From Promethearchaeota archaeon (GTDB lineage Archaea; Asgardarchaeota; Lokiarchaeia; Sigyniarchaeales; SOKP01), in NCBI GenBank assembly GCA_019058245.1, contig JAHPZJ010000024.1, positions 1 to 64,000 on the forward strand: a stretch of DNA of 64,000 bases. Reading direction: 5' to 3'. How positions within the stretch are numbered: position 1 is the stretch's first letter; every line of letters begins with the position of its first letter. The notes beneath the pieces are model-generated. The model saw only the letters and a list, made by a program, of their open reading frames with translations, did no database searches and was not told the DNA's origin. Of this stretch, positions 13,198 through 19,865 are shown piece by piece. The translations under genes and the position numbers were made by a program.

Positions 13198-14391
13198 ATG
13201 AGTAAATCTAAATATATTTATCTGGATAATGCTGCTACTACGCCAATAGATCCAAGGGTTATTGATGAGATTAATAAACATTTTTTAGAAACTTATGGAA
13301 ATTCTTCAAGTTTACATTCTATAGGACAAAAAGCAGGGCAGGTATTATTAAAATCACGTGAAATAATCGCATCATTTATTAATGCAAATAGAGATGATAT
13401 TTTATTTACCTCTTCGGGAACAGAAGCAGATAATCTCGCTATTTTTGGTGTAGCATCTAAAAATAAAGAAAGAGGTAATCACATTATTACTTCCTCAATT
13501 GAACATCATGCTGTAGAAAATCCCTATAAAGAATTAGAGAAAAATGGATTTGAACTTACTTTTCTACCTGTTGATAAATATGGTTTAATTGATTTAAAAG
13601 ATTTAGAGGATGCAATTACAAGTAAAACATTACTGATAAGTATCATGTTTGCGAATAATGAAATTGGTACTATTGAACCCATCAAAGAAATTGGTATAAT
13701 AGCGAAAAAATATAATGTTATTTTTCATACTGATGCTGTTCAAGCATTTGGAAAAGTTCAAATTGATGTTAATGACATGAATATAGACTTATTATCTGCT
13801 TCTGCTCATAAGCTCTATGGACCTAAAGGTGTCGGTCTTTTATATATTCGCAATAAAGGGATAAGAGAAGGATGGGGGAAATTTATTGATCCTATCATGT
13901 ATGGTGGAGGTCATGAGAGGAATATGAGACCAAGTACGGTAAATGTTCCTGGTATTGCAGGTTTTGCTAAAGCTGTTGAAATTGCTAAAGAAGAAATGGA
14001 AGGGGAATCTAAAAGACAGATAAAATTGAGAGATAAAATCATTAAATGGGTTACAGAAAATATTGAAGATACATATTTGAATGGACACCCCACTCAAAGA
14101 CTCCCAAATAATGTGAATTTAATTTTTAAATATATTGAGGGAGAATCAATTGTATTAGATCTTGATATGGAAGGGATTGCCACATCTACTGGTTCTGCTT
14201 GCTCTTCTGATTCCTTAGAGCCTAGTCATGTACTTTTAGCAATAGGAATAAAAACAGAGGATGCTCATGGATCATTAAGAATTTCCTTAGGCAGATTTAC
14301 ATCTGAGGGAGATATCGATTATTTTCTCAAAAAATTGCCTCCAATAATAGAACGACTTAGAAAGATATCTCCCTTAAAAAAAAAAAATTAA
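13198..14391 (+). CDS. iscS: Cysteine desulfurase IscS/NifS
   Basis: YLDNAATT, FTSSGTEADN, HTDAVQ, SAHKLYGPKG, STGSACSS. Confidence 0.95.
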   Translation: MSKSKYIYLDNAATTPIDPRVIDEINKHFLETYGNSSSLHSIGQKAGQVLLKSREIIASFINANRDDILFTSSGTEADNLAIFGVASKNKERGNHIITSSIEHHAVENPYKELEKNGFELTFLPVDKYGLIDLKDLEDAITSKTLLISIMFANNEIGTIEPIKEIGIIAKKYNVIFHTDAVQAFGKVQIDVNDMNIDLLSASAHKLYGPKGVGLLYIRNKGIREGWGKFIDPIMYGGGHERNMRPSTVNVPGIAGFAKAVEIAKEEMEGESKRQIKLRDKIIKWVTENIEDTYLNGHPTQRLPNNVNLIFKYIEGESIVLDLDMEGIATSTGSACSSDSLEPSHVLLAIGIKTEDAHGSLRISLGRFTSEGDIDYFLKKLPPIIERLRKISPLKKKN

Positions 14392-14875
14392 CAAAATTCT
14401 TTTTAATTATAAAATTAAAAACCATCAATATTAGAAGCTAAGCATATTTTTATTCTGTTCTTTATCCAAAAAATAATGATAAAATTTTCTCTTTAATGCA
14501 ATTTTGAAAGAATAAATATTTTCGATTATTCCATATATATTTATTTTGAATGCATTATAATCAAAAATTCATTCCAAATTATTAAAGGATTTATTAATAT
14601 AATGAATTATAAGATTTTCATTTAAAATTCAACCCAATTGTCAATTAAAGTAAAAAAAAGTTTACTTATTAATCAATCAAGGTTAATCAATAAAAAGTAT
14701 TATCAATTTAAATGCTACATTCAAATATTTTTTGCGTTCCATAATTGTCTTAAACCCTAATTATTATTTTTAATATTAGGAATATTTAAATATAGGTGTA
14801 GTTTTTTTTCGTAATTGACAATAATAAAAATTTATAGTGTATATAAAAAAAATAAAAAATTGGAGATAGAAAAAA

Positions 14876-14989
14876 ATGGTACCAAAAAAGAAAGACACAG
14901 AAGATGATGATGAAGATTGGGATGATGATGATGATGATGAAGAATGGGATGACGACGATGAAGAATGGGACGAAGACGATGAATATTGA
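14876..14989 (+). CDS. Uncalled 37-aa hyperacidic peptide with three Trp-acidic repeats
   Basis: ATG..TGA ORF MVPKKKDTEDDDEDWDDDDDDEEWDDDDEEWDEDDEY; GGAGA SD-like motif about 9 nt upstream; mixed GAT/GAC codons; sits in otherwise AT-rich spacer. Confidence 0.7.
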   Translation: MVPKKKDTEDDDEDWDDDDDDEEWDDDDEEWDEDDEY

Positions 14990-15689
14990 TGATTGAATAA
15001 TTCAAATTCTAAACTTAATCATTATCTATTATTAGAAATAAGATTAAATCGAAAAAATGATTTTTTTTGAACTTAATATTTTGAATTTTTTTTTAAAGAC
15101 TAAGATTAAGCTTGCTAAAAAAATTAAGAAATACAAATCTCTATTAATAAATTCTATTAATTTGAAATTTACCTTCATCAATTTTTCTCATAAGATAAAG
15201 CCTTTACTCTGAATTGGAAATATTCAGAGAGAGATAATTTTCTATTCCTTTTTTAGATTTTATGAAAAAATAATGATCTTTCAAAAAAAATTATAGACTT
15301 TAAAATTTGATTTAAATTTACATTAAAATTACGTATATTTCAGTTGAAAAATATATTTGACTATAAAATAAACATTAAGAGCATTAGTCTAATATGAATT
15401 AGCCTATTTATATTATTAAGATTGTTAAAATTTTTAACTTTAATTGCTGATATTTTCTTTAGATATTGCTTTAGATTAATCCATTTGATTTAATCCTAAA
15501 TTCCTTTATAAAATCTTAGTTTCATTAATATATTTAGAAGTTGATAAATTAGATGAATTTAATATTAGTTTTACTATTACTTTGAAATGTTGATAATAGA
15601 TAAATTTATTAAGATTAAATTCTATTATCAGAACTCAAGATAAAAATATATTTTTTTGTTATTATATTCCTTAGAACGTGATTATATAA

Positions 15690-16607
15690 TTGAATAATAA
15701 TGCTAAATATTTGAAAAAAGAAGAACAATTCGAAGAAAAATGTTGCAAAAGACCTTGTATTGAAATTAAGGCAGGTAATAAAGTTTGCATAAATTGTGGA
15801 ATGGTATTAGATATTCATTTAGTAGATCAAGAAAGAAGAGCATACAGTACTGAGGAAGTTAATGAAAGAAAACAAACAGAACCAAGATGGAGAGAATTTG
15901 GCTCAAGAACCATGCTTTCTGATAGTAAAATTGATTATAAAGGGCATTATTTGTCAGCAGAAAAAAAAACTTTATTTTCAAGATTGTCAAAAATTCAAAA
16001 TTCTCTAATTTCAGGTATAGAAAGAAATTTCTGGGAAGCTAAACCAAAAATAAAACAACTTGCCTTGAAATTAAATCTTCCAGATCACATACAGGAAACA
16101 GCATGGAAGGTCTATGCTTTAGCAGCAAAAAAAAAGTTAACAATGGGACGATCAATAGAGGGATTTATAACTGCTTCTTTATATGTTGCTATTAGAATAC
16201 ATGAATTTCCAAAATTACTAGAAGAAATTAGCGATACGGCTATGATCCCTCGAAGATTAATTATACATTCTTTAGCATTACTACTTAGAGAAGTTTTGCC
16301 TGAATTAAATTTTAGTTATAAGCCAATTAATGTTAAACAGCTAATTTTTAAATTTGGATCTGATCTAAATCTACCTATGGACGTTCAAAAACTTGCTCTA
16401 AATATGGTAACAATATCCGCTAAGAAGGGGCTTTCATTAATAGGTAAAGACCCAAAAGGATTTGCTGCTTCTGCACTTTACTTAGCTACAAAAGAATCAA
16501 ATCAAAAGAAGACTCAAAGTCAAATTGCCAAAGCTGCAAAAATAACAGAAGTTACTTTAAGAACTCGAATAAAAGAAATGAAAAAAAAGATATCTTTAGC
16601 GATTTAA
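15690..16607 (+). CDS. tfb: Transcription initiation factor IIB (TFB) paralog
   Basis: N-terminal zinc ribbon (CC...CINCG), E-R-R-A-Y B-finger, two cyclin repeats (GRSIEG; GKDPKGFAASALY; TQSQIAKAAKITEVTLR). Confidence 0.92.
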   Translation: MNNNAKYLKKEEQFEEKCCKRPCIEIKAGNKVCINCGMVLDIHLVDQERRAYSTEEVNERKQTEPRWREFGSRTMLSDSKIDYKGHYLSAEKKTLFSRLSKIQNSLISGIERNFWEAKPKIKQLALKLNLPDHIQETAWKVYALAAKKKLTMGRSIEGFITASLYVAIRIHEFPKLLEEISDTAMIPRRLIIHSLALLLREVLPELNFSYKPINVKQLIFKFGSDLNLPMDVQKLALNMVTISAKKGLSLIGKDPKGFAASALYLATKESNQKKTQSQIAKAAKITEVTLRTRIKEMKKKISLAI

Positions 16608-17570: not shown

Positions 17571-19865
17571 ATGATAATTGAGGAATTTAAATTTTCAGAT
17601 AAGACTATAACCATTGAAAGAAAAGAAGAAGTGAATTCTTCCTATAAAATTAAATCGTATAATAGTAAATTAAAAATGATAGAAGAAAGAAAAATTCCTC
17701 AAAAGAGTATCGATGACGTTATAAATCATTTTTTTCATAAAAATAAAAATATCTCAAATAAAACAAAGAATTCTATTACTAAAATTATTTATTGTCAAAA
17801 AGATAGAATTATAATTTTAACCACTAGCCATGGTAAAGAAATTATTTTAAATCGAGATAGATTGATAAGAGATTATGGATGGTTCTTTTTCATAGAAAAG
17901 CCAGTAAAACAATCAAAAAAGAAAAAAAGTAAAAAAAAAGAAGAAAAAAAAGACGAAACTACCATAACTTCAGAAGAATTTCATTTTGAGGAAACAATAA
18001 TTCCTTTGAAACAAAAGGAAAATATGAGAGCATTATATAAAACAAAAGAATATAATTATTTCCTAAAAATAATTAATTCTAACGAAATAAGACAAATTCC
18101 AATAAAGGAGGTTCTTAATAATTTCTTTTTTAATGATAATCTCGTTCCGCTTGACGAAAAAAAAAGTATCAGAAAAATTATCTATTATTTTAAAGAAAAA
18201 GTTATAGTTATTAAATCTCTAGTGGGAGATGAGATGTATGAAAACTTAGAGAATTTAGTTAAAAATTATGGATGGTATTTTTATATTACTGGTGTTCCAG
18301 TAGGAAAGAGTGAATTGTGTATTGCCATCGATAAAATTGAAAAAAGATTTGATATTGATTATTTTTCAAATACAACTCTTATAAATGAGTCTAACAAAAA
18401 TAAAGATATTAGGGTGACTATCTATCCAATTGTACTCAAACCCAATCATAATTGTCATGTTTTGGGATTGGGAAATCTAAATATCTTATTGGATTGTGGT
18501 CTTTCAGAAAAAGATGAAGAAAATGAAATTGAAGGAGATTTAAGGCATATAGAAGATTATCTTCAGAATTTACCAAGAAATATCTTAGAAGAAGTAAAAA
18601 TTAGAAAGAATATAGAAACAGATGATCAGGATAATATACCTATAGAAGAAATTCAACAAGATCCTAAAATTGATGCCATTTTTATATCACATAGTCATTA
18701 TGATCATATTTCTGGGTTAAAGGAATTAATCAAGTTATATCCGGATGTTCCTATTTTAAGTTCTAGGATAACAATAGATTTATATCTTCTTAGAGATTCA
18801 AACTTCTTAAAACAAGAGAATCATAATGAAATTGAAGAAGAGGACTACCAAAGTATTGTCAGAAATGTAATTTATGTTGAAAATGGTACTAAAATCGAAT
18901 TTAAAGAAACAAATTGTTTTCTTTCCTTTTTTCATGCAGGTCATATGCCGGGTGCCTTGATGATGTTGGCAAAAGTAAATGATTTTAGATTTTTATATAC
19001 AGGAGATTATACATACATTGATATTACTCCATTTGCTGGCACAAAACGTTTTTTAGAACAAATATCTCGTCCTATAGATTATTTATTAATTGATGGTACT
19101 GCTGCTCAAGATGATTATGGGGATTTATCTGATCAATTTCATAGTTTAATCTTATTTTTAGAACAAAAAGCAGAGTATGGAGACAACTCTTTAATTGGGG
19201 CAGATCCATCAAGTTTAGCTATAAGTTTCATGTTAATTTTTTGGAGGTATTTTAGAAAACTTCAATTAAGGCGAAATTACAAAAAACGACCTAATATCTA
19301 TGTAGACATGATGGTAAGGAAAAATATCCAAGTTATCAACCATCGCTATGAATATATTTACGGTCCAATTTCAAGATTAATTCGAGATAAAGCAAATCCT
19401 TTCAATAGTATAAAATTTAGATGGTTTGATCATACTAATTTAGATTTTATCCGTAAGAAAAATAACATAATAATTTCGCATCCACCTGATCTTTCTTATG
19501 GATTAATAAGAAATATTATTAATATCGTAGGTCGAAATCCACATAATTTTATTTTTTTGGCAGGTTCGATTCATGAATCACCTGGAGCAGAATTAATTGA
19601 AGGAGCAGATGAAATAGAGTTCTCTGAAACATGGAAAATCCCATTTCGTGCATTTTTGCTTAATACTTTTGCGCCACATATTAAAATAAAACTGCATGCT
19701 GATAAAAATCAACTAAGAGAAATGATAAAAAATTTGGAACCAAAAGAAGTCTGTTTTTTCCATCAGTCTGCTAAAAAATTAACAGAAGTTGTAGAGTTTG
19801 TGAAAGAATTAGGTGTGGAAAAAGTTACTTTACCTATAAAGAGGAAACTCCTAATATTAAATTAA
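17571..19865 (+). CDS. Beta-CASP MBL-fold nuclease with duplicated N-terminal domain
   Basis: LLDCG, SHSHYDH, AGHMPGA, YTGD, LHAD, FFHQ motifs; internal repeat in the first ~240 aa. Confidence 0.8.
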   Translation: MIIEEFKFSDKTITIERKEEVNSSYKIKSYNSKLKMIEERKIPQKSIDDVINHFFHKNKNISNKTKNSITKIIYCQKDRIIILTTSHGKEIILNRDRLIRDYGWFFFIEKPVKQSKKKKSKKKEEKKDETTITSEEFHFEETIIPLKQKENMRALYKTKEYNYFLKIINSNEIRQIPIKEVLNNFFFNDNLVPLDEKKSIRKIIYYFKEKVIVIKSLVGDEMYENLENLVKNYGWYFYITGVPVGKSELCIAIDKIEKRFDIDYFSNTTLINESNKNKDIRVTIYPIVLKPNHNCHVLGLGNLNILLDCGLSEKDEENEIEGDLRHIEDYLQNLPRNILEEVKIRKNIETDDQDNIPIEEIQQDPKIDAIFISHSHYDHISGLKELIKLYPDVPILSSRITIDLYLLRDSNFLKQENHNEIEEEDYQSIVRNVIYVENGTKIEFKETNCFLSFFHAGHMPGALMMLAKVNDFRFLYTGDYTYIDITPFAGTKRFLEQISRPIDYLLIDGTAAQDDYGDLSDQFHSLILFLEQKAEYGDNSLIGADPSSLAISFMLIFWRYFRKLQLRRNYKKRPNIYVDMMVRKNIQVINHRYEYIYGPISRLIRDKANPFNSIKFRWFDHTNLDFIRKKNNIIISHPPDLSYGLIRNIINIVGRNPHNFIFLAGSIHESPGAELIEGADEIEFSETWKIPFRAFLLNTFAPHIKIKLHADKNQLREMIKNLEPKEVCFFHQSAKKLTEVVEFVKELGVEKVTLPIKRKLLILN

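Follow-up and report, generated by a model that had tools for sequence, protein, structure and literature searches.

A hyper-acidic tryptophan micro-gene of a Lokiarchaeia genome belongs to an unannotated Asgard family and may encode a free polyanionic ligand

We describe a micro-gene for a 37-residue, hyper-acidic peptide, P0001, which lies between a NifS-type aminotransferase gene and a TFB paralog in a 64,000-nucleotide stretch of DNA (the window) from a Promethearchaeota archaeon of the class Lokiarchaeia. Comparison with related genomes shows that this is a real gene, under coding selection and with a putative promoter, ribosome-binding site and terminator of its own, and that P0001, judged by its sequence architecture and gene order, belongs to a large Asgard family that has so far gone unannotated. 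The best explanation of its function, to which we assign a probability of roughly 0.45, is that P0001 would be a free disordered polyanion, acting in trans as a non-covalent ligand with its Trp residues as anchors on a basic protein surface.

Results

A micro-gene in an AT-rich spacer

The host genome has a size of 3.09 Mb, a G+C content of 29% and a completeness of 76%. When the window was re-read, the open reading frame was found exactly as it stood in the original prediction: a Shine–Dalgarno motif and an ATG start are followed by a basic, Lys-rich head (MVPKKK), the peptide contains 26 Asp/Glu residues and three Trp, in the contexts DDEDW, DDEEW and DDEEW, and a terminal Tyr precedes the TGA stop codon. 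The computed properties of P0001 are a mass of 4.66 kDa, a pI of 4.05 and a charge of about -23.5. Cys is absent from the peptide, and hmmscan gave no Pfam match at E-values up to 10. AlphaFold2, supplied with an alignment of the family, returned a model with a pLDDT of 62, a pTM of 0.15 and no secondary structure, and thus predicts that P0001 is disordered. The features of the locus are collected in Table 1.

Table 1. Positions of the micro-gene, its putative expression signals and its neighbours in the window
Feature	Position	Strand	Basis or remark
Class-V aminotransferase (NifS/cysteine-desulfurase type), upstream neighbour	13198..14391	+	Pfam Aminotran_5, E 2e-86
Putative BRE-like purine stretch and TATA box, TTTAAATA	14778-14784 and 14785-14792	+	Conserved in upstream alignment
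Conserved block TCGTAATTGA	14809..14818	+	Nearly invariant in 11 orthologous upstream regions
Shine–Dalgarno-like GGAG	14862..14865	+	10 nt ahead of ATG
Micro-protein CDS (P0001), stop included	14876..14989	+	ORF, codon-position bias, conserved Trp, Lys head and terminal Tyr
T8 run, putative terminator	15061..15068	+	72 nt past stop; second T9 run at 15086-15094
TFB paralog, downstream neighbour	15690..16607	+	Pfam TFIIB repeats, E 3e-33; syntenic partner within the genus

The acidic tract is built at the DNA level from imperfect tandem units of 21–27 nt. Within the 1.3-kb spacer, which has a G+C content of 16–20%, the micro-ORF tract forms the only island of raised G+C and strong purine skew, in agreement with the earlier claim that it is the only coding-like stretch there. 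A search against Rfam gave nothing real in the 1.3-kb spacer. Unusually long AT-rich spacers (500–800 nt) without a conserved ORF flank the micro-gene, both in the window (14392–14875 and 14990–15689) and in the Lokiarchaeia loci L258–L287.

Coding selection and expression signals

Among 14 orthologues, differences at codon positions 1, 2 and 3 numbered 398:372:1814, with 70% at third positions, and the codon changes were mostly synonymous or exchanges between Asp and Glu. The third-position bias and the Asp/Glu exchanges therefore indicate that the micro-ORF is under coding selection. A tandem 21–27-nt repeat that is open in several frames might also be no gene at all, but a GAN-rich repeat left open by chance. 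This reading is close to refuted by the codon-position bias and by the conservation of the start, Shine–Dalgarno motif, promoter, terminator and stop position. The view taken originally, that the tract is coding sequence and not the result of microsatellite slippage, is supported by the same bias and by the conserved start, frame and Trp residues. A His-rich frame on the reverse strand was also considered and rejected; GAN repeats lack stop codons in more than one frame, which alone explains why it is open, and none of the conserved start, Shine–Dalgarno, promoter or terminator signals belongs to it.

Alignment of 11 orthologous upstream regions revealed a block, AGAAAyATTTAAATA, that is invariant or nearly so. 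From the established promoter consensus we infer that this block is the archaeal BRE/TATA promoter of the micro-gene. The TCGTAATTGA block sits about 20–25 nt past the TATA box, a spacing at which it is probably the transcription start region, opening a 5′ UTR of roughly 60 nt. The start codon is preceded by GGAG or GAGG in nearly all family members, and an SD-like motif lies no more than 15 nt from the start in 53 of the 67 Asgard peptides collected below. Past the stop codon, at a distance of 30–77 nt and ahead of the next gene, a run of T6–T9 was present in all 16 of the 16 loci examined; the T8 run of this genome is probably the oligo-T terminator of a monocistronic transcript. Together, the putative promoter, the Shine–Dalgarno motif, the coding selection and the putative terminator would thus make up a complete monocistronic archaeal transcription unit.

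A family of micro-genes in Asgard archaea

A direct protein search of relatives with P0001 gave no matches and a word-indexed profile search was likewise empty, probably because of low complexity, and homologues were therefore sought by synteny and by DNA patterns. For the former, orthologues of the TFB paralog were fetched and their flanks were scanned, and micro-ORFs were found there. For the latter we used a strict pattern derived from the P0001 ORF, consisting of two Trp codons each flanked by acidic codons. Matches were obtained in 26 of 54 genomes of the genus, 68 of 161 of the class and 151 of 400 of the phylum, and were spread over 44 of 85 Asgard genera, while the reversed control pattern gave 2 matches in all. 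Every match within the genus was a stand-alone frame of 39–77 codons.

From Asgard genomes 67 distinct look-alike micro-ORFs of 25–73 codons were collected. The encoded peptides have a median length of 45 residues, consist of 62% Asp+Glu and mostly contain three Trp; 47 have a Lys/Arg head, and 31 end in Tyr, the last residue of the others being variable (D, E, N, F). Conservation among relatives extends to the Trp columns, the Lys head and the terminal aromatic residue, and the repeat number varies from two to six Trp units. Many homologues keep both the frame and the Trp residues, on which the original prediction had been staked. P0001 itself has the features by which the family is defined: a stand-alone frame of 25–75 codons, a Lys/Arg head, at least two Trp in Asp/Glu runs, a Shine–Dalgarno motif and positional orthology. 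The term family is used here on the strength of architecture, signals and synteny, because homology of low-complexity peptides is unprovable.

The gene had been called unannotated, and this holds for its relatives as well. Exact look-ups of ten family members in about 15 billion proteins were all empty (10 of 10), and a profile search of 1.84 billion cluster representatives returned one 45-residue relative as the sole match. There was no real match to P0001 in Pfam, NCBIfam or the PDB sequences, the one match in the ESM Atlas was to an unnamed cluster of 40 residues, at 0.85, and no description of an Asgard hyper-acidic Trp micro-protein family was found in the literature. A three-Trp version of the pattern gave matches in many bacterial and archaeal genomes; small frames accounted for 45 of 123 matches, and the others fell in the acidic tails of larger proteins. 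Of ten similar micro-ORFs taken from other phyla, nine had no entry among about 15 billion proteins.

Genomic neighbourhood

In the usual block of the genus, a PAN-like AAA ATPase gene and a methyltransferase/ATP-grasp ligase gene, both on the minus strand, are followed by an AT-rich spacer of about 800 nt and by the micro-gene on the plus strand. To the right of the micro-gene come 100–180 nt, a MobA-like nucleotidyltransferase gene, sometimes a small unknown gene, and the TFB paralog, and beyond these a DUF5698 membrane protein gene and a beta-CASP metallo-beta-lactamase gene. The length of the spacer on the ligase side is nearly constant across genomes (700–950 nt); a conserved protein gene was sought in this roughly 800-nt spacer and none was found. 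In two other genera the micro-gene and the ligase share a strand, with the micro-gene immediately 5′ of the ligase. The ligase has 643 residues and joins a class-I SAM methyltransferase to a Ddl-like ATP-grasp domain; it is present as a single copy in 79 of 135 genomes. In Lokiarchaeia its gene forms a pair (L086:3906-7084 (-) and 29 further loci, L258–L287) in which a PAN-like AAA ATPase paralog follows the fusion gene in 18 of 30 loci. The window also contains, at 17571–19865 (+), the member of the conserved block that lies beyond the TFB paralog, a metallo-beta-lactamase/beta-CASP protein of 764 residues whose N-terminal extension of roughly 290 residues has no family match.

In this genome the locus consists of NifS, the micro-gene, a 700-nt spacer and TFB, in that order. 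It lacks the ligase, the specific PAN paralog and the MobA-like gene, none of which was found in the 76% complete assembly. A degraded MobA copy was sought in the 700-nt spacer 3′ of the micro-ORF, and no such pseudogene was found. The closest relative, whose TFB is 93% identical, has 384 nt and no micro-gene between NifS and TFB, and carries the block of ligase, micro-gene and MobA-like gene on another contig. The position upstream of a TFB paralog, which the original prediction had pointed out, reflects conserved synteny in that a micro-ORF is present within about 3 kb in 12 of 20 genomes with an orthologue of the TFB paralog. However, the two genes belong to a larger block, the MobA-like gene usually lies between them, and the arrangement is absent in other Asgard classes.

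Paralogues of the micro-gene are found in at least three different conserved positions, some of them convergent with the neighbouring gene, and it therefore appears that the product, and not its position, is what matters. In some relatives a paralogous micro-ORF adjoins or follows NifS. A paralogue in this genome (contig C13:382214-382309 (+), locus L131:6215-6310) encodes 31 residues with a Lys head, two Trp and a terminal Tyr, and has its own Shine–Dalgarno motif. It is convergent with a gene for a 692-residue DUF255/thioredoxin-domain protein, and the same pairing recurs in genomes G024, G005, G053, G023, G046 and G010. Contig C13 also carries a Trp-less micro-ORF (448539-448742 (-), locus L132:6040-6243) of 67 codons, in which a Lys-rich head is followed by little else than Asp and Glu; an Hsp20 gene lies directly downstream in the same orientation.

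Discussion

Proposed mode of action

If P0001 is a free ligand, electrostatic attraction through its Asp/Glu runs would bring it to a strongly basic surface on a partner protein, such as is ordinarily occupied by nucleic acid or by some other acidic tail. Hydrophobic anchoring would come from insertion of the regularly spaced Trp residues and of the C-terminal Tyr, and the repeat number, two to six Trp units in relatives, would set the valency. This proposal, with disorder, action in trans and electrostatic-plus-anchor binding as its elements, is drawn from sequence features, the pattern of conservation and analogy. We prefer it because the putative transcription unit is complete and conserved, the frame is under coding selection, the Trp residues, head and terminal aromatic residue are conserved and the peptide is predicted to be disordered; because the gene is intact here although its usual neighbours are gone from the locus; and because acidic-Trp tracts also form the tails of PCNA and of a LysW-type zinc ribbon, proteins that dock onto partner enzymes. 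Against it, composition alone fits several other roles, and the adjacency to an ATP-grasp enzyme could mean covalent chemistry. Judged by neighbourhood, the best candidates for a partner in Lokiarchaeia would be the methyltransferase/ATP-grasp ligase, the PAN-like ATPase, the MobA-like protein and the TFB paralog. The earlier proposal of a multivalent short-linear-motif peptide is retained in part: the stand-alone gene, the acidic-aromatic motifs and the predicted disorder fit it, whereas the actin or Arp target and the kinesin-TPR target attached to it are without support.

Alternative explanations

In a covalent role, P0001 would serve the neighbouring methyltransferase/ATP-grasp ligase as its substrate, as a carrier or as a tag. 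Either a carboxylate of the peptide would be activated by the ligase or the Lys head would be used as nucleophile, and the PAN-like ATPase would recognise the product, in a scheme that would resemble LysW/LysX, ribosomal protein S6/RimK or Pup/PafA/Mpa. The micro-ORF is on the 5′ side of the ligase, 700–950 nt from its start, in 23 of 27 usable loci (30 were fetched, 3 of them with too little flank), and this adjacency outlasts an inversion between genera. Within the taxonomic family, the strict pattern and the ligase occurred together in 52 cases, the pattern alone in 9, the ligase alone in 27 and neither in 46. None of the 15 ligase-negative genomes of the genus had a strict-pattern match, and the DUF255-adjacent paralogue was missing from all four ligase-negative genomes that were checked and was found in three of the five ligase-positive genomes. 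The co-occurrence suggests a functional tie, with the qualification that the pattern is strict and that the genomes are related and not independent samples. The PAN-like gene behind the ligase and the similar acidic-Trp tail of the LysW-type zinc ribbon also speak for a covalent role. The fusion enzyme is, however, absent from the sister Asgard class (83 genomes), in which there are many such micro-ORFs, with the head MxGPKKK and EDW repeats, and with methyladenine glycosylase, PanE, a SAVED-domain protein, MutS and others as neighbours; dependence on the ligase as a general rule is thereby ruled out. In addition, the ATP-grasp half resembles D-Ala-D-Ala ligases and not RimK or LysX, the last residue of the peptide varies (Y, D, E, N, F), and the genome studied here keeps the peptide without a detectable ligase in an assembly that is 76% complete. 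Because of the sister class without the enzyme and the Ddl-like ligase half, we keep the covalent idea as a minority reading that is unlikely to be right. The more specific scheme, in which the micro-proteins of Lokiarchaeia would be the small-protein part of a carboxylate-ligation system, with the ligase modifying or ligating the peptide and the PAN-like ATPase reading the product, is more doubtful. If true, this scheme would give archaea a counterpart to pupylation or to LysW-type carrier chemistry that is built on an acidic-Trp peptide.

P0001 could also be a relocated relative of an archaeal Glu/Trp micro-protein that is encoded next to the ribosome-recycling ATPase ABCE1, and act on the translation machinery. 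A Glu/Trp micro-ORF ending in Trp is found directly upstream of ABCE1, at 50–500 nt, in seven TACK-type loci from Thermoproteota, Bathyarchaeia and Acidianus (L137, L158, L169, L193, L197, L206 and L213), and intermediates with a Lys head and a terminal Trp occur in Bathyarchaeia, Thermococcus and some Asgard archaea. Both kinds are unannotated genes, of 20–60 codons in the ABCE1-adjacent case, with a Shine–Dalgarno motif, and encode hyper-acidic peptides with spaced Trp and a C-terminal aromatic residue; no paper on the ABCE1-adjacent micro-protein was found in the literature. The two differ in that the ABCE1-adjacent peptides are Glu-rich, end in Trp and mostly have no Lys head, whereas the Asgard peptides are Asp-rich and end mostly in Tyr/Phe. 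Furthermore, ABCE1 was present in none of about 70 Asgard micro-ORF loci, and in G002 and G024, both from the genus, no acidic micro-ORF lay up to 1.5 kb from the start of ABCE1. In view of this absence we reject linkage to ABCE1 for this lineage, and we consider kinship with the ABCE1-adjacent micro-protein, with a role in translation, rather unlikely. The extreme charge density of P0001, and the Trp-less poly-Asp/Glu micro-ORF directly upstream of the Hsp20 gene in this genome, would suit a bulk physico-chemical role, as a cation or polyamine buffer or as a general polyanionic holdase with no specific partner. The conserved Trp positions, Lys head and terminal aromatic residue speak against this, since a pure counter-ion would need none of them, and we hold it to be distinctly unlikely. 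A still smaller chance is given to the target favoured originally, an actin-related protein bound through a WASP-type acidic motif, or else a TPR protein of the kinesin-light-chain type. DDW-like motifs in an acidic context and five actin-family genes in the genome (best match to the actin model, E 3e-132) point that way. Against the actin/Arp2/3 target stand the lack of a WH2 or connector element in the 37 residues and the finding that none of about 70 Asgard loci is near actin-family genes; similar peptides occur in archaea and bacteria without actin, and searches for ARPC4 and ARPC2 in five genomes of the genus, of a sensitivity unconfirmed by controls, gave no match. Equally improbable is a cis-acting leader peptide or uORF, in which stalling at Trp, Asp or Glu codons would control the downstream gene. 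In most of the genus the micro-ORF is indeed 100–180 nt upstream of the co-directional MobA-like gene, with a T-run between them, but the downstream gene differs between genera (MobA-like, ligase or none), some paralogues are convergent with their neighbour, and in this genome 700 nt of AT-rich DNA follow the micro-ORF. Conservation is seen in features of the peptide (Lys head and terminal aromatic residue), and the purine-only coding tract is unable to form alternative hairpins.

Relation to known acidic proteins

DSS1/Sem1 (PF05160) and CSNAP, which are adaptors of eukaryotic PCI complexes, are, like P0001, tiny, disordered and very acidic, with a few conserved Trp/Phe residues that anchor on basic grooves of their partners, and DSS1/Sem1 also has a short Lys-containing head. 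P0001 differs from DSS1 in having half the length, no C-terminal helix and variable tandem repeats. The DSS1 model gave no match on the peptide (hmmscan, E up to 10) or on the six-frame genome. The PCI model, used to look for partners of the Rpn3/Rpn7, Sac3/Thp1 or CSN type, matched multi-repeat, generic-looking winged-helix proteins in these genomes, and also gave matches in bacterial controls. Prothymosin-alpha and the acidic stretches of histone chaperones combine a disordered polyanion with aromatic anchors in longer eukaryotic proteins. The mode of action proposed for P0001 would be the same as that of such acidic chaperones of basic proteins; no linkage to histone genes was seen here.

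The acidic (A) motif of WASP/WAVE and the DDW motif of cortactin share with P0001 a Trp within Asp/Glu runs. The WASP/WAVE motif, unlike P0001, occurs once, at the terminus of a large protein with several domains, and depends on WH2 and connector elements. CAP-Gly domains (PF01302), whose ligands end in EEY/F, were not found in 5 genomes by a search of sensitivity unconfirmed by controls. The likeness to the system of LysX and the amino-group carrier protein LysW lies in a small acidic protein, an ATP-grasp ligase gene in its vicinity and an acidic tail on which that ligase would act; LysW is ligated by LysX at its C-terminal Glu (PMC12998189). P0001 differs from LysW in having neither a zinc-ribbon domain (PF21344) nor a conserved C-terminal Glu, and in that the ligase encoded next to it is of the Ddl-like type and forms a fusion with a methyltransferase.

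Significance

Asgard archaea are the closest known relatives of eukaryotes, to which short linear motifs of the acidic-aromatic kind, and very small acidic adaptors like DSS1 and CSNAP, are usually ascribed. A whole family of free-standing peptides built from such motifs, with conserved putative promoters of their own, is present in about half of the sampled Asgard genera and is missed by gene callers and databases, and annotation pipelines thus systematically overlook hyper-acidic Trp micro-genes. Should a specific partner be found, the peptides would represent a new small regulator or adaptor for archaeal cell biology, and multivalent acidic-Trp recognition would predate eukaryotes. The present analysis contributes the conserved putative promoter and terminator, the positional orthology, the local gene loss, the ligase/PAN-like/MobA-like/TFB neighbourhood with its co-occurrence and limits, and the PCNA and LysW-type fused forms.

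Fused and paired forms

In the Asgard genus g49, PCNA (L112–L116, L119 and L122) has a C-terminal acidic tail of roughly 35 residues with two or three DW motifs, and in the Loki PCNA (L127) the acidic tail is shorter and contains Phe. The g49 tail is merely a longer version of the ordinary acidic PCNA tail, and therefore says little on function. Small zinc-ribbon proteins with long acidic-Trp tails were found at L230:96-347 (+) and in L247 (Anaerolineae), and at L064:1482-1733 (-); the Anaerolineae protein matches the LysW globular domain (PF21344), and this bacterial fused form was the only one in which that domain was detected. Also in genus g49 (L117:1-60, L118:2396-2470 (-) and L120:1264-1371), a Lys-rich micro-ORF ending in KTAKKK is located immediately 5′ of an acidic-Trp micro-ORF, and the two could constitute an acid/base micro-protein pair.
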